DNA of 64,000 nt from Escherichia phage vB_EcoP_PhAPEC7 (NC_024790.1), one strand, 5' to 3'; positions 22,837 to 55,003 are shown, numbered from the stretch's first letter. Program-made: numbers and translations. The notes: generated by a model from the letters alone, not told the origin.

Positions 22837-24507
22837 ATGCGTTACATCACCTCTCAGGATACTGGTAAGTATCCTATTGCTATCCTCGGTCATCAAATCC
22901 GAAGGGAGGAGATGATTAAAACCTACCTGCTGCCTTATGACCTAAGCATGGAAGATTTCATCTTCCTTGAACTTCATTCTGCCCCCGGCAAGAAGAAAAC
23001 TCCTGCAAGGGAGATTAAGGAGTTCATTCAGCAGGAACTGCAACAAGTACTGGATGATGCAGAGACTCAGTACATTATCTGTACCGATTCTGATTACTTT
23101 AAAATACTGACTAAAGAAGCTAAAGCAGAGGCTAACCTCGGCTATGTTTGTGACTCAGTATGGGGTAAGCAGAAGGTTATCTATACACCTAGCTACAGAC
23201 AGGTCTTTTATGATCCACCTGTAGTGAAAGCTAAGATTGCTCAGGGTATGGATGCATTACTTAACCACATTCGTGGGCAGTATGCTGAACCAGGACAGGG
23301 AATCATTGAGTTTGAAGCCTATCCGGATACACCAGAAAAGATTAAAGCCTGGCTAGACCAGTTGCTTGAGATGAATAAGCCTCTGGCTATAGACATCGAA
23401 TCATTCGGTTTAAAGCACTATAACGCTGGTATAGGGACGATTACGTTCTGTTGGAGTAAGACACAAGGTATAGCCTTTAATGTGGACTACGAGCCAATTA
23501 AGGGGGCTACTGAAGCACCCTATGGGCGTATCAACAGGAATGATGTTGTTCGTAACCTGTTACGTGAGTTCTTCATTAAGTACACTCAACGGCAGATGTA
23601 TCACAACATTAGCTATGACGTGTACGTGCTTATCTATCAGTTATTCATGGATAACCTGATTGATACGGAAGGCTTACTGCACGGCATGGAAATCATGCTA
23701 CGTAATTGGGACTGTACTAAGTTAATTACCTATCTGGCTACTAACAGCTGTGCCGGTAATCACCTTAGTCTGAAAGAACAGGCTCAGGAATATGCTGGTA
23801 ACTATGCTCAGGATGACATTAAAGACATTCGTCTTATTCCTAATGAGCAACTGTTACGCTACAACCTCATTGATGGTTTGTGTACGTGGTACACCTACGA
23901 GAAGCACTGGGATACTCTCATTGCTGATGACCAATTAGATGTTTACAACAATATCTTTAAACCAGCCTGTGAAGACATTATTCAGATGCAGTTAACCGGT
24001 ATGCCCATGAATATGGAAACCGTTAACCAAGTAGCTGAGGAGATGGAAACTGACAGGAACCAGGCTCTGAAAACTATTCGTGAGTCTAAGCTCATGAAGA
24101 ACTTCACCCTGATGCTTCGTCAGGAATGGGTAGACGATAAGAATGCTAAGCTAAAGAAGAAGCAAGTAACACTGGCTGATTGTGACATAGTGTTTAATCC
24201 TAATTCAGGGCCACAATTACAGAAACTGTTATTTGATTACATTGGCTTACCGGTTCTTGGTCTTACTAAGAGCAAGCAACCTGCTACTGACGGAGACACT
24301 ATTAAAGCACTGCGTACACATACGCAGAGTGAAGATGTTAAGGAACTGCTCAATGCACTTATCGACTATAAACTCGTGGATAAGATTATCACTAGTTTTA
24401 TACCAGCTTTCAGGAATGCCCAGCCGGGGCCGGATGGCTGGCACTACCTATTCGGCAACCTCAATCTTGGAGGCACAGTCTCCGGTAGGCTATCGGCTTC
24501 AGAGCCT
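22837..24507 (+). CDS. DNA polymerase I-like (family A), exon 1
   Basis: Ends in ...TVSGRLSASEP, matching Pol I TGRLSSxDP immediately before PNLQNIP; continues in-frame at 25214 after intron removal. Confidence 0.75.
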
Positions 24508-25213
24508 AAAATAAATTGGGCTATTTAAACCATGTGAATTCAGGGGAAACCCAGACCGGGCAATCCTGAGCCAAATCAACCATACCTGCCTTAGGAGGCA
24601 CATGATGGATATCAAGAATCTGTACGAGAATACTGACCTATCTCAAGCAGAAATATCAAAGCGTTTGGGTATTAATTACAAAAAAGTCTCTAAATATATT
24701 AGGGAGAACTACAGTAAAGAATACCGCCAAAGCAGAAATGCAAAGTCTTACCGACGCTCCAAGCTGGGGAAAAATAACCCCATGCTCGGTAAATTCGGCA
24801 AAGACCATCACAACTACAAAGGTTTAGTATCCGATAGTAAGGGCTACTTAATGGTACTTAAACCCGATTGGTATACTGCACGCAAAGGTAGCAAACATGT
24901 TTTTGCTCACCATGTAGTGGTATGTGAGGCACTTAATATCAGTGAAATACCTAAGGGCTGGTGTGTGCACCATTGTGATGAAAATCCATACAACAACGAC
25001 TTTGATAATCTTGTATTGCTAAGTGTTCCTGACCACGCTCGGTTACACTCAGCATTGAAAGGTGCAACGACTATCTCGAAAGAGAGTACACTCATGTGGG
25101 TGGAAGCGCATGGCACGCCTTACTATCTGGCGTGATGATATAGTCTGCTCTGCATAGGAATATGCAGCAGTCGAAAGACGGGCATGGATTAACGACCCAT
25201 GCTGAACAACAGG
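24508..25213 (+). mobile_element. Group I self-splicing intron (706 nt) carrying an HNH homing endonuclease gene
   Basis: Splits the conserved PNLQ(N/T)IP codons; 5' exon ends in U pairing with G of guide GGGCT (24518-24522) to give a 5-bp P1; intron ends in G; P/Q-like core 24535-24574; R-like GACTA 25069-25073 and S-like GATATAGTC 25137-25145. Confidence 0.7.
24602..25135 (+). CDS. HNH homing endonuclease (intron-encoded, 177 aa)
   Basis: HNH motif HHCDENPYNNDFDNLVLLSVPDHARLH; strong AGGAGG RBS; sits inside the intron. Confidence 0.8.
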   Translation: MMDIKNLYENTDLSQAEISKRLGINYKKVSKYIRENYSKEYRQSRNAKSYRRSKLGKNNPMLGKFGKDHHNYKGLVSDSKGYLMVLKPDWYTARKGSKHVFAHHVVVCEALNISEIPKGWCVHHCDENPYNNDFDNLVLLSVPDHARLHSALKGATTISKESTLMWVEAHGTPYYLA

Positions 25214-26122
25214 AATCTACAAACAATTCCATCCGGTTCTAAATATGCCAAGAAGATTAAGAAATGCTTCGAAGCCCCACCTGGCTGGGTATTTTGCGGT
25301 TTGGACTTCGCCTCGCTGGAAGACAGAATATCTGCATTGACTACTAAAGACCCCCAGAAACTTAAGGTATATACCGATGGTTACGATGGTCATAGTCTTC
25401 GTGCGTATGCTTACTTTGGTGAGCAGATGCCAGACATTGTAGACACAGTTGAGTCAATTAATTCTATTCAGACGAAGTATAAGCACCTGCGTAGTGATTC
25501 TAAAGCCCCAACCTTCTTGCTTACCTATGGTGGTACGTATATGGGCTTGATGAAAAACTGTGGCTTCTCAGAAGAGAAAGCTAAAACAACAGAGAAACGT
25601 TATCACGATCTCTATGTAGTTAGTGATATGTGGGTTCAGGCTAAGCTAGATGAAGCTGCCAAGACTGGTTATGTAACTGCTGCATTTGGTTTGAGAGTGC
25701 GTACTCCTTTACTGGCTCAGGTATTACGTGGGACATGTAAGACTCCATATGAAGCAGAAGCTGAAGGTAGAACTGCTGGCAATGCTTTAGGGCAAAGCTG
25801 GTGTCTATTGAATAACCGTGCTGGTTCAGAGTTTATGCGTAAAGTCAGAGCCAGTGAGTTCAGGTTAGATATACGCCCTAGTATTCACATTCATGATGCT
25901 CAATACTTCATGATTCGTGACAACATGGATACCTTGCAGTACACGAACAAGCATTTGGTTGAAGCCGTTAACTGGCAAGACCATCCTGATATTGCTCATC
26001 CAGAAGTTGGTTTGGGTGGGGAACTATCCTTGTTTTACCCAACGTGGGCTAACGAGATTGAGATTCCAAATCACGCTACCCCAGAAGAAGTTAATCAAAT
26101 AATTCAAAAGGCATTCGCATGA
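25214..26122 (+). CDS. DNA polymerase I-like (family A), exon 2
   Basis: Starts NLQTIP; motif A DFASLEDRI, motif B RSDSKAPTFLLTYGG, motif C IHIHDA. Confidence 0.75.
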   Translation, partial: NLQTIPSGSKYAKKIKKCFEAPPGWVFCGLDFASLEDRISALTTKDPQKLKVYTDGYDGHSLRAYAYFGEQMPDIVDTVESINSIQTKYKHLRSDSKAPTFLLTYGGTYMGLMKNCGFSEEKAKTTEKRYHDLYVVSDMWVQAKLDEAAKTGYVTAAFGLRVRTPLLAQVLRGTCKTPYEAEAEGRTAGNALGQSWCLLNNRAGSEFMRKVRASEFRLDIRPSIHIHDAQYFMIRDNMDTLQYTNKHLVEAVNWQDHPDIAHPEVGLGGELSLFYPTWANEIEIPNHATPEEVNQIIQKAFA

Positions 26123-30077: not shown

Positions 30078-30410
30078 ATGTCCGAAGAAATCTCCAACGA
30101 TATGAACACTCAGCTAATCCTGATTGCAGGATTCTCAGCTAGTGGTAAATCAGCATCACTGCGTAATATCCGGAACCAGGAACGCTGGCTGTATCTGAAT
30201 ACAGAAGCGGGTAAACGTCTACCTTTCCGTAATAAGTTCAACACCTACAATATCGAAGACCCATACCAGATTTGGGAAGCATTCGATGTTGCATCTCCTG
30301 GTGGTGAAATGGCAGACGATGTTGATGGCATCATTATCGACTCTGCTACCTTCATGATGGACATGCTGGAATCCCAGTATGTATTACCATCTGCTAATAC
30401 CCAAAAGGCT
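30078..30410 (+). CDS. RecA-like/Sak4-like ATPase, exon 1
   Basis: Walker A IAGFSASGKSA, Walker B GIIIDSATF; the TAA at 30411 is read as the first intron codon. Confidence 0.5.
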
Positions 30411-31182
30411 TAACTACTAAGGCCCGTTAGTCAGTAATGATTAATGATAACTGATTGAATTCAGGGAAACCCCTAACGTAAAGACGAGGGCAATCCTGAG
30501 CCAAGACTTAATCTTTCTCCGGTTTTTATTAACGGAGTTACAAACATGAGTAAGAAAAGATTCGGTAATGAATTACATCCTCTGTATTACACATGGTTAA
30601 CCATTAAACAGAGATGTGACAACCCTAAGCACGCTAGTTATAAAAACTATGGGGCTAGGGGGATAACTAGAGCAGAAGAGTTCTCTGACTTCAAAGTGTT
30701 TGCTGCCTATCTAGAATCATTAGATGGTTACGCAGACAGGGAGAGACTGGGTCTTACTTTAGATAGAATAGGTGGTTCACTTGGCTATGTGCCAGGAAAT
30801 CTGAGATAGGCAACTAGAACAACTCAGACCATTAATTCCAGAAAAAGAAGAACCAGTAAAGCTACCTACTTAGGGATAGGTTTAAACACCACTAAGAAAA
30901 AATGGTCAGCAAGAATCTGCAACGGTAATGAAAGAATCTTTGTAGGTAATTTTGATTCCGAGATTGAAGCTCTGAAAGCTAGAAATGCCTACATTATTGA
31001 GCATGGTTTACCTCATGCCATTCAAAAGATTAAGTAAGGTGCAACGACTATCCAGTAATGGAGTAGGGCAGAAGCTAATGCTGCTCGAAGCGGTCAGCAT
31101 CCTATCGTAATTAACGAGGATGAAGATATAGTCTGGACTGCATGGAAACATGCAGATGCAGGTAATGCTGCTGGGAGTGTAG
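30411..31182 (+). mobile_element. Group I intron (about 772 nt) carrying a disrupted HNH-AP2-type homing endonuclease ORF; 3' boundary approximate
   Basis: P/Q core 30453-30504 near-identical to intron 1; 4-bp P1 between exon GGCU (30407-30410) and guide GGCC (30421-30424) at the same 10-nt spacing; R-like 31038-31052, S-like 31126-31134; 3' splice site placed after G 31182 by frame and a 3-bp P10 (alternative about 31209). Confidence 0.6.
30546..31037 (+). pseudogene. HNH-AP2 family homing endonuclease-like ORF with in-frame TAG at 30807-30809
   Basis: N-terminal YYTWLTIKQRCDNPKHASYKNYGARGI..., then DRIGG...GNLR-stop-ATRT where the family has NxRWAT; the same frame continues into an AP2-like domain (KKWSARICNGNERIFVGNFDSEIEALKARNAY) to TAA 31035-31037. 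Confidence 0.55.
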
Positions 31183-31626
31183 TTGCGTACACTCTTGAAC
31201 GTATCGTGGGGAGACTTTGCACAGTTCTTTAAAGTACTGCTGCAACAGAAAGTCGTTAAGTTTGGTAAGCCGGTAATCATTACTGCCCATGCCAAAGATG
31301 AACTCGACGAAGCTGCTGGTGTAATGAAAACATTCATCCCGGTCAAGGGTTCACTGAAGAACAATGGCCTTGAGGCTTACTTTTCTACAGTGGTTTACGC
31401 AGAACGTGTAGACATTAAAGAACTGGAGAAGTACGGCAACAAGATGCTTGATATTACGGAAGAAGAACGTGACTTAGGCTATAAGCACGTATTCCAGACA
31501 CGTCCAACCAAGAAGTCTGTTGGTAAACGTCTTCGCTCACCAATGGGTATGTTCGATAAGTCTCAGACTTACATTGATAATGATGCCCAAAAACTCTTAG
31601 ACCATCTGGCTGAATACTACGCTTAA
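31183..31626 (+). CDS. RecA-like/Sak4-like ATPase, exon 2 (start approximate)
   Basis: In-frame continuation after intron removal; the track start at 31183 is a TTG. Confidence 0.45.
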   Translation: MRTLLNVSWGDFAQFFKVLLQQKVVKFGKPVIITAHAKDELDEAAGVMKTFIPVKGSLKNNGLEAYFSTVVYAERVDIKELEKYGNKMLDITEEERDLGYKHVFQTRPTKKSVGKRLRSPMGMFDKSQTYIDNDAQKLLDHLAEYYA

Positions 31627-31666: not shown

Positions 31667-32470
31667 ATGTCACTGTTCGGTAACTTGAAAGAAAAGACCA
31701 AAAACGTTGAAGCTGCAAAAGACTCCCTTGGTGGTGGTGGCTTCGGTGCAAAAGAATCTGATATCTATACCGGTACTGTAAAAGTAGCTTACGTAGGTAA
31801 AGCTGACTCTGGTGCAGACTGGATGCAGTTAATCATCGAAAACCTGAAAGGTTCTGACGGCAATGATGCTGGTGAGTTCCGTGCCCAGGTATACTTTACT
31901 TCCGGTAATACTAAGGGCAATAAGCCAACTTACGAGAAGAACGGTAAAGAGTACTTCCTGCCTGGTTACACTGTCATTAATGACATGATGCTTATGGCTA
32001 CTGGTTGTGAACTGCCAGATGCAGACTTCGAAGAGAAGATTGTTAAAGTCTATGACTTCGACCTGAAAGCTGAAACCAATAAGTCTGTCATGGTTCCAGT
32101 TGATCTGGTTGGTCAGACTGTTACCTTCGCTCTGGAAAAGGTTCTGGAAGCTAAACAGGTTAAAGGTGACAACGGTTACGTTGACTCCGGAGAAACTCGT
32201 GAAGTAAACGAGATTCAGAAAGTGTTTCACCCGGAACTGCTGGTCACAGTCGTCGAGGCTCAGGAAGCAGAGAAGGCTGAGAAAGAACTGACTCCGGAAC
32301 TGGCTGTATTCTATGCAGCATGGTTGGAAAAGAACAAAGGTAAAACCCGTGATAAGACCAAGGGTTCTGCTGGTGGTAATGGTAAAGGTGGCTTGCCTCC
32401 TAAACCAGGTGCAGGTGCTGGCACAGGTACTACTCCTGCCGGTGGTAAATCACTGTTCGGTAAGAAGTAA
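31667..32470 (+). CDS. Single-stranded DNA-binding protein-like (267 aa)
   Basis: Size and position match N4 SSB (about 265 aa); Gly-rich flexible C-terminal tail. Confidence 0.5.
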   Translation: MSLFGNLKEKTKNVEAAKDSLGGGGFGAKESDIYTGTVKVAYVGKADSGADWMQLIIENLKGSDGNDAGEFRAQVYFTSGNTKGNKPTYEKNGKEYFLPGYTVINDMMLMATGCELPDADFEEKIVKVYDFDLKAETNKSVMVPVDLVGQTVTFALEKVLEAKQVKGDNGYVDSGETREVNEIQKVFHPELLVTVVEAQEAEKAEKELTPELAVFYAAWLEKNKGKTRDKTKGSAGGNGKGGLPPKPGAGAGTGTTPAGGKSLFGKK

Positions 32471-33051
32471 TGAAAATCCCAATTGTCGGTGCAGACATTA
32501 GTCTCCGCAATTGGGGATTGGCTCGTGGGATGCTGGACATTGAGTCTGGCGTCTTCGAGCAGGTCGAACTTAAACTGGTTCAAACTGAAGTTGACCACAA
32601 CAAACAAGTTCGAACCAACTCCAAAGATATACAAGCCTCTCATGATTTGTTTCTTGGTTGTGAGGAATGGTTACGGTCTGCTAAAGCAGTATTCGTAGAA
32701 GTACCAGTAGGCTCTCAGTCTGCTAATGGTATGAAGTCCTATGGCGTATGCGTAGGATTAATCGGTGCATTTCGTGCATTGGGTTGTCCAATCTTTGAAG
32801 TATCCCCAATTGAAAACAAACTTGCACTGGTAGGTGATAAAACTGCATCCAAAGACACGATGATTCGTGCTGCTCATGCCATCTATCCTGAAGCCAACTG
32901 GCTCATGGATAAGAAGGGCAAGCTTCTGAATAAGAATGAGCACTTAGCTGATGCAATCGGTGCAATCCACGCTGGTGTAAATCTCCCAGCTTTCCAGAAT
33001 CTCCTTAAATTAATAGAGACACAATATGCAAATCGTTCTGAATCAGTCTGA
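32470..33051 (+). CDS. RuvC-like Holliday junction resolvase (193 aa)
   Basis: N-terminal IVGADIS acidic motif and C-terminal EHLADAIGAIHAG resembling the RuvC DAxDAxAIA motif. Confidence 0.6.
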   Translation: MKIPIVGADISLRNWGLARGMLDIESGVFEQVELKLVQTEVDHNKQVRTNSKDIQASHDLFLGCEEWLRSAKAVFVEVPVGSQSANGMKSYGVCVGLIGAFRALGCPIFEVSPIENKLALVGDKTASKDTMIRAAHAIYPEANWLMDKKGKLLNKNEHLADAIGAIHAGVNLPAFQNLLKLIETQYANRSESV

Positions 33052-33475
33052 AGTAGAAGCTGCTATTGAAGCTTATGTAAATGAACAAGTTAATCTTGCC
33101 GGGGACATTAATATCCTGGTGAATGCAGATGGTACTGCCACTATTGGTATCAACGAAGAGGTCGGTCATAGTGATGACACTCCACCCTTGGTAGAGAAGA
33201 AGACTCGCCGTCCTCGTAAGAACCCTCAAGAAGCCAAACACCGTCCGGTAGAACCGGAACCGGTTGTTGAGGATGAAGCCGAAGAAGAGGTAAAGGAAGA
33301 AGAAATCCAGACCTCTACTGGTGGACCGAGCGAGAGTTCTACGCCGGAACCTGAAGAAGCAGTAGCTGAACCAGAAGCACAAGAAGAAGTTGTGCAGGAG
33401 GATGTTAAGGCTGAAGAACCAGCAGAGAAACCTGCTGCGAAGCCTTCACTGTTCGCTGGCCTGAAACGTAGTTAA
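33026..33475 (+). CDS. Highly acidic protein with Glu/Pro-rich C-terminal tail (149 aa)
   Basis: C-terminal half is strongly acidic (EEEVKEEEIQ..., PEPEEAVAEPEAQEE). Confidence 0.45.
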   Translation: MQIVLNQSEVEAAIEAYVNEQVNLAGDINILVNADGTATIGINEEVGHSDDTPPLVEKKTRRPRKNPQEAKHRPVEPEPVVEDEAEEEVKEEEIQTSTGGPSESSTPEPEEAVAEPEAQEEVVQEDVKAEEPAEKPAAKPSLFAGLKRS

Positions 33476-33879
33476 TCTGGTAGGTGGCTCAGAAGCTGCT
33501 GCTAGGTGTGGTAGTGTTTATAGTCCTGATGCTATTACTGGTCAGGATTATAGACGTGTCGGCTCCATACATAGCTTTTATCATCACTGTCATTATCCTG
33601 TGGAAATGCAGTGGTAAACACGGTGGTGACAAGCCGCCAGAATAACAACAACCGAACCAGTGGGCTTTAATACTCTCCGAAGTCCATTGGTTCAACCGGG
33701 GTTAATATGAACAAATTTACTATTCACTGGCTCAATGGAAAGGTTAGTTCTTTCATGGGTGGAGAACCTGCTGAAGGAAACAAAGCATTCCACATTGATT
33801 CAGAAGGCTGCAAAATCTTAATACCGTATGTTTGGTATAAAGAGGGTGAAGTTGAAGCATTGAAAAAGAGTAGTTAATA

Positions 33880-35410
33880 TCGTGAAGGGTTCTGTCAGAA
33901 TCCTTTGAGATAGGAACTCCTATCATAACCTTTCTTAACTTAATCTTTGCCGTATGGCACTGACGCTAGGGGTGGCCCCCCATCCGTCAGACAGACTATT
34001 TTAAGAATGGGTTATCTCAGAAAATGTAAAGCAACATTCGGGTTAATCAATGGCCTCTCCCTATAGGGGCCATTTCTGAATCTTAGGCTATATCCCAAAG
34101 GTTAGTATCTTTGGGATAAGGCTTCAGATCCCTTATCAAACTAACTGCTCAATGTTGAGTATATTAATTAACCCAGCCCACTAAGGGGGCGGGAGTTTAA
34201 TGCCGGTAAGCATAAGCCCATCCGACTACAACATCGAAGTGTTAGGTCTTACATGCAATATAGGGTATAAAGGGAGGATTCGTCCCCTCCCTCCTATTAT
34301 GAACTATCGGAGAGTGCATTAGTTGATTAGCTGTGGAAGGTAGGCCGATGTCCACAAGTGTGGCCCAGAGCTAGTGTACTCCCCGATAGTTTTCGTAGCG
34401 ATTATGCGGTTTTTTAGAAACGAACCAATAACATAAATGCAAACGAAGAAGCGTATCTGATGGTCGCCTAACAGCGTAACCTCAGTCAGGAGTGAGTCGT
34501 CCTGATTATCAAACGACCGTGGAGTTCTCCCGTCCATGTATTAGAAACGGGGGACCAACTACCAGTTGCACGAGATGGCTTGATATGTTCAAGTTTGGAC
34601 TAAGTGTGACACCGCTAGATTGGAGGGCTGCTGCGGTAAGCTATAGACTCCAACCGGAGGTTCGAATCCTTCACTGGTAACCAATTCAAAGTAGCACTGG
34701 CTCATATTAGTGGAACTCGAACCCATTGAGCAGACGAGATTAGCTAACTCTCAGTGCTACCCCTAATTGGAAGAATTAAGACGGGTCTGGTGAAGTAGAT
34801 GGGGTTCAATTCCCCCCGGTGGAGTAATCCACTAGCGTGCTTGGTGCACGTATAAGACTTAGTACTGGTGGTTCGATTCCATCCCCCGTTACCTGAAGTC
34901 GCCAGGTACTTATGGCAAACGGGTAGTAACGAACTAGTCATTCGTCAAACGCCCACCCAATTATGAGTCAGCAAGAACGCCTTCACTTAAACTTAAACAA
35001 AAAAGCTTAACGCAATGATTATGTAGGGGTATGTAAGGATTGCGAAGAAGGAGCCAGTTAGAGCCTGGCATGACTCACCTATTATGTCCGCTTAGCTTAG
35101 ACTGGGAAAGCAACCGACTAATAATCGGAAGGTCACTGGTTCAAATCCAGTAGTGGACACCCATTCAGCAGTAACATAGTCCTGATTGCATAGCACTCTA
35201 AAGACAACACTGGTAAGACAGTCCAGTGGCTGCTAATGTATTGTTATTCCCCTCGACGGGAATTTCGCTGGAGAATAGGAACTACTTAAATCCTAGCCTG
35301 AGTATTGCAATATGTGACTATCAATCACGAGAGACGGGACGACCAGACCCCTGAAGCTGGCAATATTGCATATTCATACAAGCCTCCCAGCTATGGGTAA
35401 ATAGTACTAA
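33880..35410 (+). other. Non-coding structured island with tRNA-like elements
   Basis: No RBS-supported ORF; perfect hairpins (for example a 10-bp stem at 34091-34118) and T-arm-like motifs at 34659-34669, 34801-34815, 34870-34880 and 35138-35148. Confidence 0.45.
35086..35159 (+). tRNA. Candidate tRNA (74 nt; anticodon loop CTAATAA, anticodon AAT as parsed)
   Basis: Acceptor GTCCGCT/AGTGGAC (one G-U), D-stem GCTT/AAGC, anticodon stem CCGA/TCGG, T-arm ACTGG-TTCAAAT-CCAGT; CCA not encoded; A34 is unusual. Confidence 0.5.
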
Positions 35411-35446
35411 GTCCCTCAGAGCCGTCACTCTGGGGGACTTTTTTAT
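35411..35446 (+). terminator. Intrinsic terminator
   Basis: GTCCCTCAGAG-loop-CTCTGGGGGAC followed by TTTTTTATTT. Confidence 0.6.
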
Positions 35447-35632
35447 TTGAGCATTAATAATTGGATAATCAATATGATTGATCTAATCTTAACCCCGTAT
35501 GCCTATGAGGTAACGGATAACCGAGGATGTAAGTCTTTGGTATTTGCAGGTAGCGTAGCCTATAACAACGCAGTTATGTTTAAGTACAAACTCAAACCAC
35601 TCTATGAGGCTAATAATGGCAACAGTAAGTAA
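35447..35632 (+). CDS. Hypothetical small protein (61 aa, TTG start)
   Basis: ORF only; weak translation signals. Confidence 0.3.
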   Translation: MSINNWIINMIDLILTPYAYEVTDNRGCKSLVFAGSVAYNNAVMFKYKLKPLYEANNGNSK

Positions 35633-36612: not shown

Positions 36613-36643
36613 AAGCCCCTCATTAGAGGGGCTTTTTTATTTT
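36613..36643. terminator. Terminator between convergent plus- and minus-strand transcription units
   Basis: AAGCCCCTC-ATTA-GAGGGGCTT with T-runs; sits between stop 36603 (+) and stop 36642 (-). Confidence 0.7.
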
Positions 36644-39600
36644 AGTTTACTAAGTTCATCCAAGGGTTCAGGTTGTGAGCACGAAGCCCTTGACCAAAGC
36701 CCCATGAGTAATCCAGCCCACCCTTAGCAGCAATGCTAAAGATGTTGTCCTGAATAGGTAAGCCAACATTACCAAACATGGTAGGAGTTGGAGCCAGCAT
36801 TGCCATTGCTGCATGTACCGGGTTGTTACGAATCATGGATACTGCAACTTTTGCAGAACGGATCTTAAAGTTGTAGAACCACATTAAACCAACGCTTTCC
36901 ATATACCCACGGAAGCGACCCGGCAGACGGTCATAGTTAATGAACTCTTCAGTTACACGTCCCAGTGCTTCTTCACGAGTCTTACCTTTACGCTGGGTCA
37001 GCTCATCATAGATGATTGCTTTAGCGATAAAGTCAGAGTACTCAACTGTCTTCTGGATACCCTGGAACAGAGCAGTATCCTTAGTAATAAGTGCATAGCG
37101 ACCAGCAGTACGTACAGACTTAGGTAACTTATCAGCCAGTTTCTCCATGTATTCGTGAAGTTTACCTTCGGTAATCAGGATGTCATCACGACCGATACCA
37201 GCATCTGCAATTGAAGAGAACTCACCTGCTTCTAACAGAGGCCATATACTCATACGCTTATGACTATCAGTAATGGACTGAATCTCAGCCTTAAGTTTAC
37301 GAATCTGGTTCGGGTTAGTAGCTGCACGTAATTCTGCTTCTGCATCTACCTGACGCAGACGAGATTTAAGGTACTGGTTAATCTCAGCAGTTTTCTGTGG
37401 AATGCTCTTAGCAATGTTCTTAACCGGTACACCACGAGCAACCATTTGGTAAAGGTTAGCCAAGAAGTTAACGGCAGGTACGACTACTGACTTAACTACA
37501 ATCAGAGTCTTAGCTTCTTTAACTAAGTTCTGAACCAGGTTCTCACCACCCATTGTGTACTTATAAGCACGGTTGCCAAATACACCCAGCATAGCTTTCT
37601 TGAAGGTATCCAGTGTTTCCGGGGACCAACGAGAATTACCAGACCAAGCATCACCTACAGAAGCTGCACGATAACCAAGTGCATCATTAAGCATGTCACG
37701 ACGCACCCACAATTCACCCTCACCGAACAAACTCTCTGCTTTCTGACGTGTTTCACTGTTCATCAGCTTAAGAGCATCAGCAGTTACTGGGTCCAGTTTA
37801 GAACCAAGAAGGTTAACGTACTGGGACTTATTAGAGGCAGACATCTTAATGTCATTCTCATACATGCTATGCAGGTTCTCAATCAGCATATCGTTGAAAC
37901 GCTGAGCCTTAGCTTCTTCCACCTGACGACCACGCCATATACCAATTGCACGGGCAAGATGGTTCTCACCTTCAATATGCTTCAGCATGTTAGGGTCAAT
38001 GGATTGCTCATAGGCAACCACATTACCTTTATCATCATATACAGGCAGGAGTGGTTCATTACCACGTTCACCACGAGCCAGTGCTTTAGTGATACGGTCT
38101 ACGGAAGGCTTGTCAGTGATACGACCAGCTACCATGGAACCCATCGTAAAGCCTGTGCCGAGGTCTACGCCACCAGCAGTATCACGAACGTTCTGTAGGA
38201 TACCCTGTGAGAATGGAGCCTGTGCCTGTACCGGTGCGAAGTAGTAGCTACGTGCCGGACCACGGTTAGCAGAGCTACCCTGATAAGTACCCAGACGTAC
38301 ATAAGATTTCTCAATCAAATCAGCAAACTGATTATCTTCAGCAACAATCAGATTAACACCCTGTTTGTTCTCACTAGGGATATGCCCTTTGTACTGGTTC
38401 AGGGTTGCACGCATATCAGATTTGGCTTTAGCCATTTCATCTTTACGTTGACCAACTAGATAAGAGGTAGCAAAGTCCATCCCATCAACTTCTGTCTGAG
38501 CCAGTGAAGATAACATCTCACGGTCGGACTTGTTCATTGCTTCCAGTGCATACAAAGTAATCAGCTTATCCAGTTGAGCTACATCTACAGTAGAGCGAGC
38601 AGCCTGACGTTCACCCAGCATACGAGAGATTGCAGTAGCATTACGCAGCAGGTTATTACCGACTGTACCGTTAATCATGTACTGAGCCAGTTGCTTAGAT
38701 TTACGGTTAATCAGGGGCCAGTTACGACCAGCTTGCTTCTGCAAATCTGCTTCCAGCTTGTTCACTTCACGGTCAACAATCTTCTGGTCAGATAGCAGGT
38801 CACGGATTTCAGCCAGAGACATGGTGTCACGCAGAACAGCTAAGTCAGTTTTACCCATACCAGTGTGCATTGCTTTCCACTCATCGTTAGTCAGCTTACG
38901 GCTGAATTTAGATGCGATAGTAGTAGGCAGGTGTTCACGGAATTGCTGACGGTCTGCCTGTACCTGTGCACGAACTGCTTTAATCAAATCGTATACAGAA
39001 GCATTGCTCTTAGTACGACCGGTTAAGTCATTAATCAAGTCGTGGAAAGGTTGCCATACCTTACCCTGGTTCATTGCAGCCATAACACCTTCAGCTACGA
39101 TTGCACCATTCTTCTCTGTAGCAATGGCAGCTACCAGTTGTGCAGCATGAGCAGCACCTTTTACTAATGGATTCTTGGTATTGGCTGCAACTTCACGAGC
39201 ACTTTCTAAAGCACGGGTAGACAGTGCATCAATAGAATCCACCAGATACTGGTTAGCACGGTCGATAGCATTACCACTAGGAGTAGCAACGGAATCATAG
39301 AATGACTGTGCATTAAGGCTAGTCTGCATGATTGTCTGAGCCAGTGCATCCATACCTTCCTGTACGTTGGTAGCTTTGGTATCACCTGCTACACGGGCAT
39401 TCAAACTAGACATTGCAGCAGTACCGATGTTAGTCAGCATTGCATCAACGGTATTCCCAGATTTCTTATCTGCTTTCATAACAGGAATGTTAGCCAGTAC
39501 ATTACGCACCTCTTCACTTACCATTGCCAGACCAACAAAAGTAGGCAGTAAGGAAGAACGACCCTGTGCGTCAAACTCAATATTGTTAGCACCCATGATG

Positions 39601-42600
39601 GTATCGAACTTCTGTTGAGCATAGTAACGGTCAGCAGGGTTAGTACTATCTGGGTCAGCCATGAATGATTCAACGGTCAGGTTCTTAGTGACGTGTGCAT
39701 AGTATTCCTGTGCACGAGAAAGAGCAGCCGGACTAATAGCAGCTTCAGTAGCCAGTGCAGCAACGATATTAGTGAACAGTCGCTGTTCCTGCATATTCAT
39801 AGTGAAGCCATGAGCCTGAACATCACGAGTTACTTTAGTTGCATTCACTACTGCATCAGAGAACTTACCTTTACGAATTACTTGCTGTACTGGTTCAGAA
39901 CCAATGTAGTTAATAATCAGCTTATCAAAGGTCTGTCCCAGCTCTTCCAGACGAGTATTGTCACCATACGCCTTGTTATGGAACAAGGTAGTGTCTTTGG
40001 ATACAGCAGCCGTAGGAGCCTGTCCACGCATAACCACAGATGAGTTAAACAGTAAGCCAGAGAACATATCATCTGCATTAGCAGGTGCTTTCTTGCGACC
40101 AAATACCAGACGTTTGATTGCCTCATATACAGACTGAACCATAGTTTTCAGTGCTGTGGTTTTCTTCTGCTTACCAATCAGTTCACGGTTAGTTAAGCCC
40201 CAAGCCATATACTCATTCAGTGCAGCAGCTTTAGCCATTGCTGGTTCAATAAAGCCATTAGACAAGTGACCGTTAATAGTATTAAGTGCATCAGCATATG
40301 CTTCACGTACTGCCGGAGATTCATTCTTAACATCCAGAGTACGGAACTGGTTCATCAAGTCTTCAATATTCTGGATTGCTTCATTAGGAGTACCCTCATA
40401 GTGAGCCAGTACGGATTCAAAAGTGGAAGCATGTACCAATTCATGAACCAGAGTCTCTAAGGAAGAGGTAACTAAGTAGATGGTCTTATCATCAAAGTTA
40501 GTCCAGCCATATGCATTACCAGCTTCGGCAGCTTCAATATCTTTTGGTGCTGGGCGAGTAATGTTCTTCTCAATAGCATAAGCATCCAGTTGAGCAGGAG
40601 TACCGTAAACAACCTTATAGTCTTTGGCAGCAAGGGATTTCTGTACTTCTTTCAATACTGCTTGCTGTTCAGGAGTCATCTCTTTAGCCAGTTTAGAAAT
40701 GGCAGTATTGGACAACAGACGTACACCAGACTTAAGTACACGACCAACCTGTTCCATCGCTGGTACTTCTTTCACTGGTTCTGCTTTAGCAGCACGTACT
40801 GCATTACGACGCTTATTTAATTCAGCATCAAACAGCTCGTTCAGCTTAGCTACTTGCTGGTCTACAGTCAGACCTTCCAGAGAAATTTTACCGTTATTCA
40901 CATATGGAGCACCTACAGCAGCCATCTGGTCAACAGTGGTCTGTACCTGGTTCATTACTTTGTGGCGAATATCTACACCCAGAGCAATATTACGTAGGTT
41001 ACGTTCAATCTGTTCAGCACCTGCACGAAGTAAGTCATCGGTAGCACCCTCACGTTGGTCATATTCCAGAGCAGACTTAGCGATAGCCTGTTTGGTTTCA
41101 TCTGACAGTTTGCTGAAGTCTACATTCTTCATGAACTTAGCGTAGGAGTCATAAACATTCTTGATAGGGTTCCCCTGCCAGGAAGTGTATACAGCCTCAT
41201 TTGCTTTACGACTCGCATCAGTGATGTCGTTGATACCAATGTTCATACCATCAAAGATTTTCAGGGTATTCTTCGGTGCACCTTTCATAGTAGAAAGAGT
41301 CTGCATCATCATGCCATCACCAGTACCGATGGTCATAAATGGAATACCTGCAACACCTGCTTGTGAAGGAGCATAGATGCTCATTGGCACACGCATACGG
41401 TCATCTAAGTTGGTAGCCAGTACTTGGTTAGCAACATCAGTATTCTCACTACCAGCAATGTAGAAAGTCTGTGAACCAGTCTCAATCATTGGAGCCAGTG
41501 GAGATAATGATTCCTGGATTTCATTCAGTTCTTTCTGTGTTAAGAAATCACCCTTCTTCCAGGTTGGGTCTTTTTCTTTTTCTGCCAACTTAGTCTGTAC
41601 TGCTTGCTGGAACATATCCTGCAATACCAGAGACTGAATCTGAGTAGCCTTCTGCAAGTTCTCGGTAGAGTGCATCAGACCTTCACCAACAGTATTACGA
41701 ATACCAGTTCGCATTGGTTCAACGAACAGGTGGAGCATGTTCTCCTGTAAGTTCTTCAGGGCATTACCAGATACGGTAAATTTCTGAGGGTCTAACTTAC
41801 CAGTCAGAGCACCATCTACCTGCTGAATAGACAATTCACCTTTACGCATAACTGGAACATTGCCTGTCAGTGCTTCCATAGAAGTAAGGAAAGTATCCAG
41901 CATAGCCTGAGCATCAGCCTCAGACGCAGCCTCCTTACCAAACATTGCCATAGCTGGGGAAATGCTAGGGTCAGCAGCCCGTGCTTGCAGAACGTCACTG
42001 AAGCGTTCGTAGATGGTGTCAGTAATTGCACTGACCATCTTCCCAGCAATACCACGAGCACCGGAACCATAGATGGTAATGGTCAGTGGGTTTTTAGCGA
42101 TACCACGTTTCAGGTCCAGAGTACCATCTTCATTCAGATTAAAGTCTTTAATGAACAGGTCCATTAACTTCTGAAGATGATTCATCTGGCTCATAACCGG
42201 AACGTTGTTACGGTAAGTAGTACGTAACTCATTTAGTGCTTGTTGCAGACCATTAGTAGATGCTTCATACAGGTCAACACTGTCATCCTGTGAACGATGT
42301 TCGTTCATAGTCTTACCGGCTTTACCGAAGAACAGACCACCTTTAGCAGTATTCTTAATCCAGTCTGGAGTGAACTTACCCCCAGTCATTAATACCATTG
42401 CGTTAATCGGGCCGTTGGTTACACCATCAGCTTCAACGTACAGTGGAGTAGTAAAGTTGGCACGGTCATCACTGTTCAGGTAACGGGCATATTCCATCAG
42501 AGCCATGAGAGCTACGAAGGATTTGTCACCACCCAGGGAGGTCTTCAGAATATCTACTGCATCAGCAGGTAAGTGACCAGACTTATCGAACTCAACCATC

Positions 42601-45600
42601 ATATCAACAGCAGGTTTCAGATTACCTTCCAGAGCCTTGGTCAACTTTTCAGACATAGCTTCACGGGACATGTTATGTACCTTGATGCCTAATGCCTGAG
42701 CCAGTCCTAACTGGAAGTCAGAGACTGCTTGGCTGTTTTCATTACTCAAGTCAATAGTAGAGAAGGTTGGCAGAATTGCTTCACGAACCAGCTTACTGGA
42801 TTGTGGGTTATTCTTACCTAGCATCTGCATACGACCTACACGGGTCATGTTGTAACCATAGTGAATAGGAGTATCCAGACCATTCTCTTGTTCCCGTATC
42901 TGGCTGATTACACCAAACAAGGAATCATATGCCATAGACACGGACAGGTTTTTACCCTCCAGTGACTTAGCAGTGTTCATATTCAACAGTTCTGGATTAA
43001 GAGAACCAGCACCCATCAGTTCCAGAATGTTGTCACGACCTAAAGCTTCATAGAAGTTAACCATCGGCATGTGTACACGGAACTCAGTAGCTTGTTCAGC
43101 TTTCAGTGCAGCTTTCTGTTCCGGGGTATTTTTAACAGCAGGGTTACGTAACTGAGTTTGAGCCACGGAAGGAATGTCGTCACCGAAGTACATTTTCTCT
43201 TCTGGTTCTAAGAGGACAGCTTCCTCAATAGCAGTAGGGAATTTGTTAATGGCATCATTGTCATCCAGCTTCTCAATGGTATACAGACCAACAGTCTTAT
43301 TAGAGTCTGGGTCAATCTCAGACACATCCAGCATAGACTCTTTAACTTCACCCATTTCAATGAGGGAAGACAGAATCTCTGTAGCCATTGCCATTGGGAT
43401 ACCTTTTGTGTAACCCAGTGGTGCATTAGGATTACGATTCAAACCCCAATAAGATTCAATCTTCTGAGCCAGTGAGTTAGTAGCTTCGACCAGAGTCTGG
43501 GCATTCTCAAACTCAGCCAGAATACCTTCTGGTAACAGAGATGCTTCCACACCAGTAATAGCAGCTACGTCTTTCATGTCTTTAATGGCAGCATTCTGTG
43601 TAGCAGTCAGTCGCCATTGCAGTCCGGCAAGTACAGCAGTCTCTAACAACTGATCATTGAACTTAAAGGTGTCACCATCTCGTTCAACGATATTCAGCAA
43701 TTTGCCACCTACCCAACGGTTAGCTTCAGTACCTTCTGCAAAACGTTTACCAACGTTCTTATTAGCAAGGAACTTAACCAGACGTTCAGACAAAGTAGTC
43801 TTCAGAGTTTCCCCAAAGTCCATCAAGTCCTGATAACGTTTCATCACATCACTAGTGAGAGCGTTATTTTCTTTTTGAGTGAATGCCTCAAAGCGAGCAG
43901 CAGAAGACAGTGCTTGCTTAATATCAGCCAAAGGAGATTCAGAACCAATGGTACGGGACTTAGGTTCTTCCGGTAGGGTAAATGCTTTCAGGAACTGGTT
44001 CGGTGTCTTTTCATTGTTATAGACAGGGAACACTGTTTCCATTTCTGTTTTAGTTTCAGCTACTTCCTGGATGGTATCCTCATTAGTGAGGGTAGCTTCT
44101 ACTGTTTCGGGCTTAGTAGTAGAGACTTCTTCTGCTTTTGGACTAGTCTCCTTAGTAGGAGCAGTCTTATTTTCTACCACTGGTTTAGCTTTAGGCTGTA
44201 CAGTAGTAGTGTCCTCTTGCACTGGTGCAGGAGTTTCATCAACCTGATTCACTGGTTCATTAGTCTGTTGAGACTGAGTGGCATCAAGACCACCTTGACG
44301 GAACTCTTTAACTACCTGGGCAACTGGCTTGTTCAGACGTGAATCCAACGAGGTAACTTTCACATGAGAAACATTAAGCTCCGGGTAAGCCGTAGCAAGT
44401 GCGTTAGCAATATCAGCTACGGTTTTGGCCTCCAGTCCTACTTGCTGGGCAAACTTAACAGACTTGGTATCGTAAGGATTGACACCGAGGCCAGTACGAC
44501 TACGTACCCATTCACGGGAAGGCGAGAGAGCCTGATAATGGACAGACTTATTCTTATCCGCATTCCCCGAAATCAGATGCTCATTCAACGCTCCGACCTT
44601 ATTCTGCATGTGCTGGGCGAACTTCATAAAGTCGCTCAGATAAGCGGAGGCCAAATCGAAGTTACCAGAGTTATACGCAGAACGAATGCGTTTCGCATGT
44701 TGCAACGCAGAGTACTGTCCTTCATTAGAACGAGACTCATCGGTTTTAATCTGTTTACTAACAATGTCCTGAGGACGTAAGCCCAGTTCTTCTGCTTTAG
44801 CGTCGAACTCACGTGCACCCTGTAACAAGGCAGCAGCAGATTGCAGGGCAGCACGTTGACGATTCCCTAATGTAATCTTACCTTCACTTGCATGTTTAAG
44901 AACCATGTTCACTGAATCTGCATCCAGTACTTCTGGAGACACATCAGCAGCCATAGCAATGTTGTTTGCTTGGGCTTGGTTAGCTTCTTCAGTAGCTTTC
45001 AGTTTACCTGCCTCAGCCTGTTCCTGAATCATGGAATGGATAGCACGGAATGCACGAAGTACTTTAGGGGTATTCTGTACGTTAGCCATCAGGCCGGAGA
45101 ACTGGTCTACGATTGCAGCAGCAGGGGAACCTTGTTCCAGATTAGCCAGAGCACCTGGGTCACGGTTAATGAAGTTATCCATAGACATGATGTTGTCATA
45201 CATCTGAATTGCAGCTTCCATTTGAACGTTAGGGTCTTCGGCAGTATTAACCAAGTCAGCCATCTTCTGAATAGCTTCTACACGGTTAGTGGAACCAGAA
45301 ACAGCTTCACGGATTACTGGGTTAACTTGTTCCAATTCTACTGGGTCAAACTTCATTGCCTGAGTTAAATCAGCAGCATACTGGGTAGCAGCAGCTTTCT
45401 CTTCTGGAGTGATATCCATTGCATCTACTGCTTCTTGTACAGTTGCTTGTGCTTGCTCTGCTTGAGCAGCAGCTTCCTGTGCAGCAGCATTAACCGTAGC
45501 ATCAGCTACAGGGGATGCTTGTTCATTACGCTTAGCAACTTCTTCACCACGTTGAACCAGGATGTTAGTAAGGGGAGATGTAGCTTTTGCTAATGTTTTA

Positions 45601-53091: not shown

Positions 53092-53733
53092 TTAATCGTT
53101 CAGGCTACCAGCAGCAATCTGTGCTTGAGCCAGTTGAGCCAATTCTGCTTCAGTCAGCGGAGGCAATACTTCAATGGAGAACTCGCGTGCTTCTGTTGCA
53201 CGAATATCCGGTAAGCCATTCTTACCTTTACGAGTCGTAATGTTGATGAACTTACGCTCTTTAAGGAACTCGTAGATACAGTACGGAATATGATAACCAT
53301 TGTCAGTGACTTCACCGAATGGAACAAACTTACGTACAGTACCCATATATTCGTTAGCTACGGTGATAATCTCACCAGGCAGGTCTTTCTTCTTGGGGTC
53401 AAGGTTCTGGATACGTACACGAATCAGTCGAGTCTGTTCTGCACGAATCTTCTGACCCAGAGTCATTTTCTTAACACCTGCTTCTTGTTTTTCACCCAAA
53501 GGATTAACAGCAGCTTCTTTTACTTCTGGTTCATCTTTTGCTTGTGCAGCTTCAATCTTCTCACGAAGTTTCTCAACGGAGATGTTGTTAGAGAACTTAA
53601 TATTCATCAATGTTGCACGTTGCTTAAGAACATCAAGTTCGCTAGGCATTGCAATATCGTTAACGGTATCTTCGTTGCCCTGTACGTCCAGTTCTACGTC
53701 AGTGGTCGGTTTATCGTTAATGCTCATGTTCAT
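53092..53733 (-). CDS. Virion protein (213 aa)
   Basis: ORF downstream of the capsid gene. Confidence 0.5.
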   Translation of the reverse strand: MNMSINDKPTTDVELDVQGNEDTVNDIAMPSELDVLKQRATLMNIKFSNNISVEKLREKIEAAQAKDEPEVKEAAVNPLGEKQEAGVKKMTLGQKIRAEQTRLIRVRIQNLDPKKKDLPGEIITVANEYMGTVRKFVPFGEVTDNGYHIPYCIYEFLKERKFINITTRKGKNGLPDIRATEAREFSIEVLPPLTEAELAQLAQAQIAAGSLND

Positions 53734-53800
53734 ATTTCCTGTGGTTCAACTAGTTTTATTAAGAGGGGGACTTATGTCCCCCTTGTTTTATTTAGGACTA

Positions 53801-55003
53801 TTACAGAGGAGCAACAGTCTTAATCAGAGCCAGACGTTCTGGACGTTTAACCAGAATACCGTAGTACCACTTGATGGAACTGAAGCCAGTCTCACCATAC
53901 GGGTCATTACGGTCAGCAGTTTCTCGACCAGGCATCTTAGTCATAATGGAGAACTTAACAGACTTACCATCAGTCTGGAAGCCAATGGTAGAGAAGGAGT
54001 CATCACCAACTACCAGCATCGGGAATACGTCGTAGTGTTCTTGGCCACTAACCATAGAAGAACGGTAACCTGGGTTAGTAGTAACCTGAGCACCAGCACC
54101 TGCCCAATGAAGCATCTCAGGAACCTGGATAATACGGAACTTGTCGATACAACCAATTTCGCCGTTCATCAGAGTACCAGCATCAGCATAGTGCTGAACC
54201 TCAATGAATGCTTTGTTGCCGAACAGGTCTTTCATCGCTTTCAGTTCTGGAACCAGTTCAGAACCAACATACATTACACGAGTACCACCAAGTACTTTGG
54301 TATCAGTAAGTTTAGAACCAGTGATAATAGTAGTCTGAGTCGGGGTACGGTTCTCAGTAAGAATCTGGTCAAGACGCATCAGGTTCTTATAAGAAACTAC
54401 AGAAGGGGTAGCACCTTCACCAGTGATAGTAGCATCGGAAGTAGCAGCACCTGCATACAGTACAGTACCGGCAGCAGCCAACAGGTCTTTCTGGAGAACA
54501 GCTTCAGTCAACTGTACAGCACCGTTCATCAGTTCACGAGACAGGTGTTCTTTAAGTTGGTCATCAGAATCAAAGTCCAGAGACTCTTGAGTAAATTCGT
54601 AGAAGAAACCGAACTTATGGATGGAACCTTCACGAGACAGACGAGTAAAGCCTACACGGTTAACACGACCACCGTTCTCTGTCAGCAGAGGCAGTTTAGA
54701 GGTGATGTTACCAACGTCTCTGGAAGAACCATACAGGTTACCGTTAACGATGGTAGCACCATTAGCATCAATACCCTGGTCGTTGATGTTCTTATCGTCG
54801 AGCAGTGGAACGTACTCATACACCTTAACAGTCTTACCGTAGTTCTTCGGCATGTTAATGGTGTTAGCCAATGGCATGAAGTACTGATCTTTACGGGACT
54901 GAATAATAGCTTTCTTCAGCCAGTAATAGGTATTCATCTGGTCGGAACCAGCACCATCAATGCTAGATTTCTGACCGTCAATTGGGGCGTTATAGTTTAA
55001 CAT
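53801..55003 (-). CDS. Major capsid protein (N4 gp56-like, 400 aa)
   Basis: Size and position match N4 major capsid (about 401 aa); follows the scaffold-like gene and portal. Confidence 0.7.

Follow-up and report, generated by a model that had tools for sequence, protein, structure and literature searches.

A tRNA-Ile(AAU) gene of Gamaleyavirus coliphages, its tRNA-Ile2-type relatives and a recurrent C34-to-A34 change

A 64,000-nucleotide stretch of Escherichia phage vB_EcoP_PhAPEC7 (NC_024790.1), referred to here as the window, carries at positions 35086–35159 a genuine transfer RNA gene with the anticodon AAU. The phage is a Gamaleyavirus, a G7C/PhAPEC5-like N4-type coliphage; by Gamaleyaviruses we mean the N4-like E. 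coli podophages of the G7C/PhAPEC5 group, family Schitoviridae. We find that the gene is related to CAU-type tRNA-Ile2 genes and that its change from C34 to A34 has, to judge from the alleles compared, recurred in other enterobacterial phages. The reading that we prefer, at a probability of about 0.5, is a functional phage tRNA derived from a CAU ancestor, which would be charged with isoleucine, keep its A34 unmodified, be dedicated to AUU and be independent of the lysidine synthetase TilS.

When the whole window was compared with all 4227 Rfam families, the tRNA family RF00005 gave the sole match above threshold, on the plus strand, at 62.4 bits against a gathering score of 29 (E = 3.9e-11) and over model positions 1–71 of 71. 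An earlier note on this DNA, made by a model from the letters alone, had proposed a tRNA with these ends; the end-to-end match shows its coordinates to be exact, and the covariance-model score that it named as a check lies above the tRNA threshold. ARAGORN calls a tRNA-Ile with anticodon aat at 35085–35163, and tRNAscan-SE, run by others, likewise gives Ile-AAT (PMC11927229). The acceptor stem comprises 7 base pairs (GUCCGCU/AGUGGAC) with a single G5·U68 wobble, and the 4-bp D stem (GCUU/AAGC) closes the loop AGACUGGGA, which has A16 and G20. The anticodon stem, 4 bp (CCGA/UCGG), is flanked by an A27·A43 mismatch and carries the 7-nucleotide loop CUAAUAA, with U33, A34-A35-U36, A37 and A38. 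A variable loop, AGGUC, is followed by a perfect T arm of 5 bp (ACUGG-UUCAAAU-CCAGU) and the discriminator A73; CCA is not encoded, the sequence running on as A-CCC-A. All details of the fold in the earlier note, including the one G-U pair, the A-A mismatch and the perfect T arm, are found in the sequence. Its assignment of the anticodon as AAU with A34, U33 and A37 is borne out by Rfam and ARAGORN and by relatives that keep all stem positions paired, and its remark that A34 is rare in bacterial tRNAs is established and restated in a published study (PMC11066159).

We compared seven distinct homologs, with 20 stem pairs in each. All 140 of these stem cells are paired, against 17–48% when the 3′ partners are slid. 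Six columns vary; three of them are stem positions that still pair (2:71 as UA, CG or UG; 5:68 as AU or GU; 1:72 as GC or GU) and the rest lie in the D loop and variable loop, while the anticodon arm is invariant. The shuffle control on stem covariation was not significant (74/500) with seven homologs and little variation among them, so we describe the pattern as conservation with compatible changes rather than as strong covariation. Across relatives the tRNA has a mean pairwise identity of 0.96, in a region otherwise full of insertions and deletions, and it scores 62–65 bits in all carriers. These comparisons of homologs show the tRNA to be under purifying selection. The 110 nucleotides directly upstream (34972–35081) equal it in conservation, with mean pairwise identities of 0.94–0.99 among Gamaleyaviruses, and the conserved unit is therefore a leader-plus-tRNA cassette.

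In a set of 5426 E. coli genomes, the best matches were genes annotated as tRNA-Ile or sometimes tRNA-Met. Those that we fetched have the loop CUCAUAA, that is, a CAU anticodon of tRNA-Ile2 type, and one of them is a Stx-prophage tRNA-Ile named ileZ in one record. They have in common with the window tRNA the anticodon-stem core, all loop positions except 34, the variable loop AGGUC, the T loop and A73. The C34 on which TilS acts is absent from the phage gene, AAT being invariant in all Gamaleyavirus homologs examined. On these resemblances the window tRNA is a relative of tRNA-Ile2 by descent and not a functional member of that group. A CAU tRNA of tRNA-Ile2 type, carried on a small mobile leader-plus-tRNA cassette common to enterobacterial phages, would have become tRNA-Ile(AAU) by one C34→A34 change.

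Such a change is found again outside the Gamaleyaviruses. Our siphovirus comparison drew on 120 further phage loci, gathered via a neighbouring RNA element, the tag module described below. Swi2-like siphoviruses carry a homologous cassette in which an upstream motif, GCAAT.A.TATGTAGGGGTATGTA.GG.TT.CG, is followed by a tRNA. The Gamaleyavirus leader motif GCAATGATTATGTAGGGGTATGTAAGGATTGCG recurs in the leader of this siphovirus tRNA, and the siphovirus tRNA core, AAAGCAACCGACT-NNN-AATCGG, is identical to the D-arm/anticodon-arm core of the window tRNA. Its anticodon is CAT at seven loci, called Met(cat) by ARAGORN, and AAT at two (L109 and L062), called Ile(aat). Over 244 flanking columns, L109 lies nearest to the CAT locus L025 (6 differences) and L062 nearest to the CAT locus L107 (5 differences), with 13 differences between the two AAT alleles. 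Since the two AAT alleles have different CAT alleles as their nearest relatives, C34→A34 appears to have arisen repeatedly. The AAT form is also found at 100% identity in the cultured Salmonella phages Seszw_1 and Skate, of which Skate has it annotated as tRNA-Ile, and in many seszw-labelled records. Together with the Gamaleyavirus lineage, the alleles point to at least three switches, or transfers by very local recombination, and this is our main new result. Repetition of this kind argues against a neutral accident.

Identity elements were compared with the bacterial sets tabulated by Giege and Eriani (PMC9976931). The isoleucine determinants A73, C4-G69, U12-A23, C29-G41, A35, U36, A37 and A38 are all present, whereas at position 34 the tRNA has A in place of G or lysidine. 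The methionine determinants U4-A69 and C34 are absent. The molecule looks like an isoleucine acceptor of tRNA-Ile2 ancestry in which C34 has been replaced by A, and the host isoleucyl-tRNA synthetase (IleRS) would charge it with isoleucine through A73, C4-G69, U12-A23, C29-G41, A35, U36, (t6)A37 and A38.

What such an anticodon could read is suggested by an orthogonal AAU tRNA in E. coli, whose loop equals that of tRNA-Arg2 outside the anticodon: it gave 4.5% at AUU, 0.43% at AUC, 0.27% at AUG and a value below detection at AUA (PMC11066159). The same work, which notes the rarity of A34 tRNAs in bacteria, reports inosine in only 3 of 15 A34 tRNAs, with none at the AAU anticodon, and describes the deaminase TadA as very specific for the anticodon and loop of tRNA-Arg2 (PMC11066159). 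The window tRNA has U33-A34-A35-U36 and not the U33-A34-C35-G36 of a TadA substrate. No CDA/TadA-type zinc motif ([HC]AE...PCxxC) occurs in any of the six frames of the window, and a phage-encoded tRNA deaminase was rejected on that ground; the annotated 'dCTP deaminase' of N4 we take to be of a different fold. Taken together, the published decoding and inosine data and the lack of a deaminase motif in the window favour an isoleucine tRNA with unmodified A34 that is AUU-dedicated and TilS-independent.

In the mechanism that we propose, the gene would be transcribed rightward with the early and middle genes, its RNA excised by host RNase P and 3′ processing enzymes, and CCA supplied by the host CCA-adding enzyme. 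A34 would stay unmodified, since the TadA of E. coli acts specifically on the ACG loop of tRNA-Arg2 and the window lacks a CDA/TadA motif. On the ribosome the tRNA would pair with AUU in Watson-Crick fashion, read AUC poorly and leave AUA and AUG unread, topping up or replacing host tRNA-Ile1 without dependence on TilS. AUU is the phage's commonest isoleucine codon, at 33 per 1000 codons; the ATT/ATC/ATA proportions are 0.60/0.30/0.10 overall and 0.68/0.20/0.12 in late genes. ATT/(ATT+ATC) is 0.63–0.77, against 0.31–0.61 in other NNY pairs decoded by G34 or Q34. The same excess of ATT is seen in N4, which lacks a tRNA-Ile: the fractions there are 0.73 and 0.61, giving an odds ratio of 1.73, compared with 1.91 in the window. 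The bias is therefore a trait of the lineage and not a response to the tRNA, and we keep it only as evidence of demand.

Several points weigh against a charged, AUU-dedicated tRNA. Co-adaptation of codon usage, which would have spoken for it, had to be dropped once N4 was seen to have the bias without the gene. The D-loop determinants G16, U20 and U21 are lacking, A16 and G20 being found. IleRS reads position 34, and for the yeast enzyme an A34 transcript is a 16-fold poorer substrate than its I34 counterpart (PMC11685878); to the extent that a yeast transcript is a guide, unmodified A34 is a poor IleRS determinant, which leaves the proposed charging weakened but not dead. The search for a deaminase covered the window, 64 kb of a genome of ~71–73 kb. 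Since the leader matches the tRNA in conservation, some of the constraint may stem from another cause. Lastly, host tRNA-Ile1 already reads AUU, and a second reader need not bring a benefit.

These weaknesses give other explanations their footing. If, during infection, host TadA acting on this tRNA in particular or some unrecognised enzyme deaminated A34 to inosine, the product would be a eukaryote-like tRNA-Ile(IAU), the first in a bacterial system, and this one tRNA would read AUU, AUC and AUA independently of TilS. Inosine would restore good recognition by IleRS (PMC11685878) and would explain how a former AUA decoder could afford the loss of C34, ATA still making up 10% of the phage's isoleucine codons; moreover, loop positions 32, 33, 37 and 38 (C, U, A, A) equal those of tRNA-Arg2, the TadA substrate (PMC11066159). 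Yet the AAU tRNA placed in this same loop context in E. coli did not read AUA and discriminated U3 from C3 by about 10:1; inosine was scarce (3 of 15 A34 anticodons) and TadA narrow in its specificity (PMC11066159), and the window has no CDA-fold zinc motif. We consider an inosine-34 tRNA quite improbable. A main role outside bulk decoding is unlikely too, if less remote: the gene could provide a tRNA-Ile that escapes or soaks up a nuclease or toxin, of the host or of a competitor, directed at the tRNA-Ile anticodon loop, or could act as a processing signal of the RNA island in which it lies. The idea that phage tRNAs may resist anticodon nucleases is in the literature. AUU is already decoded by the host, the recurrence of the same change in unrelated phages suggests a specific selective agent, and the island holds tRNA-like modules incapable of decoding (an element of 124 nt that ends in CCA, a pseudo 'Cys-ACA' and, in Bas96, the scaffold with replaced anticodon arm). 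However, no isoleucine-specific anti-phage nuclease was identified in this analysis, the isoleucine identity elements and perfect cloverleaf are kept as expected of a charged and used tRNA, and a decoy could afford to lose one or more of A35, U36, A37 and A38.

A neutral or decaying remnant, a CAU tRNA with a mutated anticodon hitch-hiking on the conserved leader and island, would account for the several degenerate tRNA-like sequences in the island, for the replaced D and anticodon arms of Bas96 and the relatives without an annotated tRNA at the homologous place, and for the absence of codon adaptation in the N4 control. It is hard to square with scores of 62–65 bits in all carriers, with six variable columns that lie in loops or preserve pairing around an invariant anticodon loop, with 41 phage records at 90% identity or more, or with the independent return of the change on two other haplotypes and, besides, in cultured Salmonella phages, and we rate it as improbable. 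About as doubtful, in our estimate, is the suggestion that the repeated C34→A34 change is an adaptive re-targeting and not simple codon supply, whether through formation of I34 or through escape from, or neutralisation of, a host factor acting on the anticodon loop of tRNA-Ile or tRNA-Ile2.

The earlier note had also pointed out, while claiming no link, that the triplet CUA stands at loop positions 32–34 and that an open reading frame (ORF) of HNH homing-endonuclease type in the window contains an in-frame TAG. That coincidence is what speaks for an amber suppressor reading through the TAG. The anticodon stem, however, fixes a standard 7-nucleotide loop with U33 and with AAU at 34–36, and only 4 of 55 ORFs end in TAG. 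The codon at 30807–30809 is TGG (Trp) in Bas96 and PW8, making the TAG a nonsense mutation in the HNH gene. Nor do tRNA and ORF occur together: PhAPEC5 has the identical tRNA without the HNH ORF, and Bas96 the HNH ORF without the window tRNA. The idea fails on these sequence comparisons, and we accord it virtually no probability. The features discussed here and below are collected in Table 1.

Table 1. Positions of the tRNA gene and of the associated features in the 64,000-nucleotide window
Feature	Position	Strand	Basis or remark
tRNA gene, predicted tRNA-Ile(AAU), 74 nt	35086–35159	+	Rfam RF00005, ARAGORN, identity with PhAPEC5
Anticodon AAT (A34 A35 U36); loop CUAAUAA at 35118–35124	35120–35122	+	Sequence, Rfam, ARAGORN
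Conserved leader directly 5′ of the tRNA, containing GCAATGATTATGTAGGGGTATGTAAGGATTGCG	34972–35085	+	Identity among Gamaleyaviruses
ORF-poor RNA island, ~1.5 kb, between gp47-like and gp48-like genes	~33880–35440	+	ORF list
Unannotated module like transfer-messenger RNA (tmRNA); tag frame 34439–34468, stop 34469–34471	34385–34554	+	~650 nt 5′ of the tRNA
Intrinsic terminator-like hairpin, 13-bp stem and T-run	35409–35450	+	~250 nt 3′ of the tRNA
HNH-type homing endonuclease ORF, in-frame TAG 30807–30809	30546–31037	+	Comparison with Bas96 and PW8

The gene and its anticodon are already annotated and published; the peculiarity of the anticodon has not itself been examined previously. About 1.7 kb around the tRNA match Gamaleyaviruses at 86–95% identity. 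The window tRNA is 100% identical to an annotated 'tRNA-Ile' of PhAPEC5, and 41 phage records contain a match of at least 90% identity. The gene is entered as 'tRNA-lle(aat)' in Bp4 and a tRNA-Ile is annotated in ECBP1, ST4, Moonfish and UE-S5a, while in certain relatives the homologous place lacks a tRNA annotation. 'tRNA-Ile-AAT' was printed in a paper of 2025 (PMC11927229), beyond which no paper in the library searched mentions Ile-AAT in a phage. New here are the descent from a CAU-type tRNA-Ile2 cassette and the repeated C34→A34 change, both as read from sequence, the prediction of AUU-only reading, and the negative control on codon co-adaptation.

The tRNA lies in an island that varies within the N4 subfamily. 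In N4 the gap between gp47 and gp48 (32113–33631; NC_008720) carries no annotated feature and holds four canonical tRNAs, Asn-GTT, Ser-TGA, Thr-TGT and Pro-TGG, at 50–77 bits (32451–33130 of locus L018); all four are unannotated in RefSeq NC_008720. Their presence in the same gap marks the region as a variable tRNA island of the subfamily, and relatives carry differing sets of tRNA-like modules in it. Neither ARAGORN nor Rfam detected a tmRNA in the N4 island. A terminator is annotated in PhAPEC5 at the place homologous to the terminator-like hairpin of the window. On the plus strand there was no convincing sigma-70 promoter; the only matches were spurious and lay inside the tRNA itself, and such a promoter for the tRNA was rejected. 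N4-type phages transcribe their early and middle genes with polymerases of their own, so its absence is uninformative. The ORF at 36642–47012 (3456 amino acids) sits where N4 has its virion RNA polymerase.

Other tRNA-like sequences occupy the island. A 124-nt element at 34560–34683 (plus strand) combines an acceptor stem of 7 bp with a T arm and encodes an A-CCA end, with a long insert replacing the D and anticodon arms. Its acceptor stem reads TACCAGT/ACTGGTA where the counterpart in ECBP1 (L004 1573–1696) has TATCAGT/ACTGATA, and its T stem reads GGAGG/CCTTC where ECBP1 has GGGGG/CCCTC; the changes in both stems are compensatory. Its minimum-free-energy fold is no better than those of shuffled sequences (z = −0.69), so that the compensatory changes seen by eye are the sole support for the element. 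At 34781–34893 (plus strand) there are T-arm-like remnants, GGGGTTCAATTCCCC at ~34801–34815, a weak match to the tmRNA T arm, and GGTGGTTCGATTCCATC at ~34868–34886; ARAGORN and Rfam find no complete cloverleaf there, and the remnants are probably decayed or derived tRNA-like modules. At this place relatives have modules called 'Ala-cgc', pseudo 'Cys-aca' and 'Undet', or a 67-nt CCA-ended element. In the slot of the window tRNA, Bas96 (L006 2294–2378) has an 85-nt 'tRNA-Val' of 54 bits with acceptor and T arms as in the window tRNA; the 30-nt element CAGGAAAGCTTCGAGAGAACAAGGTGTCTG takes the place of its anticodon arm, and its D arm is also replaced. Homologs of CAGGAAAGCTTCGAGAGAACAAGGTGTCTG stand free in 12 other fetched island loci, swi2 for example, and, with the arm swap in Bas96, imply that tRNA scaffolds in these islands exchange modules. 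On a 112.6-kb IMG/VR contig (L013, ~8016–8039), a tRNA-Lys(CTT) has the exact D/anticodon-arm core of the window tRNA, AAAGCAACCGACT-NNN-AATCGGAA, a hint that a single scaffold serves phage tRNAs of differing specificity.

Upstream in the island lies the tag module. Its centre, CAUAAAU-GCA AAC GAA GAA GCG UAU CUG AUG GUC GCC-UAA, encodes ANEEAYLMVA; the SsrA tag of E. coli is ANDENYALAA. By blastn the module occurs in 265 phage records of unrelated families, nearly all unannotated at the match, among them N4-like phages, Ackermannviridae (Det7, 2050H1), Moazamivirus SE131, swi2 (Swiduovirus) and other phages of ~46–49 kb. A related module of the type in contig L038 is found in 463 of the 5426 E. 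coli genomes, with no annotated feature beneath it among the matches listed. In 100 distinct copies the tag frame always comprises 10 codons and a stop, of the form A-N-[DES]-[DEN]-x-x-[LR]-[AMIV]-[AV]-A, with an in-frame stop upstream and no start codon between, and the other two frames run for 1 to 23 codons. Variable sites number 5, 5 and 9 at codon positions 1, 2 and 3, the third being the most variable. A stop-codon hairpin and two H-type pseudoknots follow the tag. Across 11 diverse sequences 92.7% of the cells of this structure are paired, against 27–44% in slid controls; 12 pairs show compensatory changes on both sides, and 0 of 500 shuffles reach the covariation score. As judged from these features, the module has the layout of a tmRNA mRNA-like domain.

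No canonical tRNA-like domain closing round the tag was found in 15 representatives. ARAGORN makes no call on the module, and Rfam tmRNA matches to it are below threshold, at 20–33 bits. ARAGORN does report a 'tmRNA' in swi2 (L025 663–1037) with the tag AKAVRLRKCSFRCGECAG, taking its acceptor and T arm from the CAT tRNA next to it; since that tag is unconserved and the call skips the conserved 10-codon tag 100 nt upstream, it is most likely false. An exhaustive survey of 2014 recorded phage ssrA only in Bxz1-type mycobacteriophages, Bacillus phage G and DS6A (PMC4131195), and we found no paper on the tag module, which seems more novel than the tRNA finding. In several IMG/VR phage or prophage contigs (L038, L030, L037, L029, L035) and in BUCT541 and swi2 (L024, L025), repeated cassettes flank the module, each closed by a long interrupted helix (CACAACAGGTAAGAGCATT ... 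AGTGCTCTTTCCGTTGTGG) round a variable insert of 50–100 nt. Some of the inserts carry T-arm-like hairpins, and Ackermannviridae have analogous long hairpins. In the siphoviruses a sigma-70-like promoter (TTGACA-17-TAGATT) lies ~55 nt 5′ of the tag.

Elsewhere in the window, the HNH ORF stands between fragments (30078–30413 and 31324–31626) of a gene annotated in relatives as a Sak4-like single-stranded DNA annealing protein. In PhAPEC5 and G7C the match is confined to the final ~145 nt of the region queried, and both appear to be without the insertion. The DNA polymerase gene (22837–26122, plus strand) appears to be divided into ORFs of 563 and 307 amino acids with ~670 nt between them that include a 177-amino-acid ORF (24602–25135), whereas N4 gp39 is a single ORF of ~860 amino acids. 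No group I or group II intron exceeded the Rfam threshold in the window; the split may be due to an intron or to a homing-endonuclease insertion. A 472-amino-acid ORF (53582–55000, plus strand) inside the minus-strand late-gene block has atypical isoleucine codons (4 ATT, 12 ATC, 12 ATA) and may be a foreign or mobile gene.

The gene itself is an ordinary annotated phage tRNA, and its value is that of a natural test case. Bacterial A34 tRNAs beyond tRNA-Arg are nearly absent, and most work to date on the behaviour of unmodified A34 has used engineered tRNAs. The tRNA-Ile(AAU) described here is fixed across a genus of E. coli phages that are easy to grow and, on our comparison, arose again from a CAU ancestor in siphoviruses of Salmonella and E. 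coli, which makes its charging, modification state, codon reading and effect on fitness directly measurable, with the CAT and AAT alleles in near-isogenic cassettes as built-in controls. For annotation there is also a caution: CAT tRNAs in these phages are labelled Met or Ile variously, and some RNAs of the surrounding island escape the standard tools.

Comparison with known systems sets the gene in context. The island of N4, from the same subfamily, offers the same genomic slot and strand, with entirely different tRNA content and no isoleucine tRNA. The swi2-like (Swiduovirus-type) cassette of Escherichia and Salmonella siphoviruses, exemplified by the 'tRNA-Met(CAT)' of swi2 and the 'tRNA-Ile' of Skate, has a homologous upstream motif and an AAT allele of its own, and its tRNA shares an RNA island with a tmRNA-like tag module; it differs in its acceptor and T stems, in an encoded CCA and a terminator directly 3′ of the gene, and in being mostly CAT where each Gamaleyavirus copy examined has AAT. 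The cytosolic tRNA-Ile(AAU) of eukaryotes, which ADAT2/ADAT3 mature to IAU, has the same genomic anticodon and amino acid, but there deamination of A34 is quantitative and I34 serves IleRS as a determinant (PMC11685878), whereas for the phage tRNA no suitable deaminase is evident and E. coli TadA is very specific for the anticodon and loop of tRNA-Arg2 (PMC11066159). E. coli tRNA-Arg2 itself (ACG, converted to ICG), the host's only A34 tRNA, has the same loop of C32, U33, A34, two variable positions, A37 and A38, and differs in that positions 35–36 are CG where the window tRNA has AU. The closest counterparts are E. coli tRNA-Ile2 (ileX/ileY) and the Stx-prophage ileZ, with the anticodon CAU, whose C34 is converted to lysidine by TilS and which decode AUA. 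These best E. coli matches are ~82% identical over positions 7–65, with C32 U33 N34 A35 U36 A37 A38, the stem core CGA/UCG, AGGUC, UUCAAAU, A73 and C4-G69 in common, and carriage of such genes by phages and prophages is common. The window tRNA has A34 in place of C34 and hence no lysidine, and reading of AUA is not expected of it (PMC11066159); relative to tRNA-Ile2, its predicted codon would move from AUA to AUU and its dependence on TilS would be lost.

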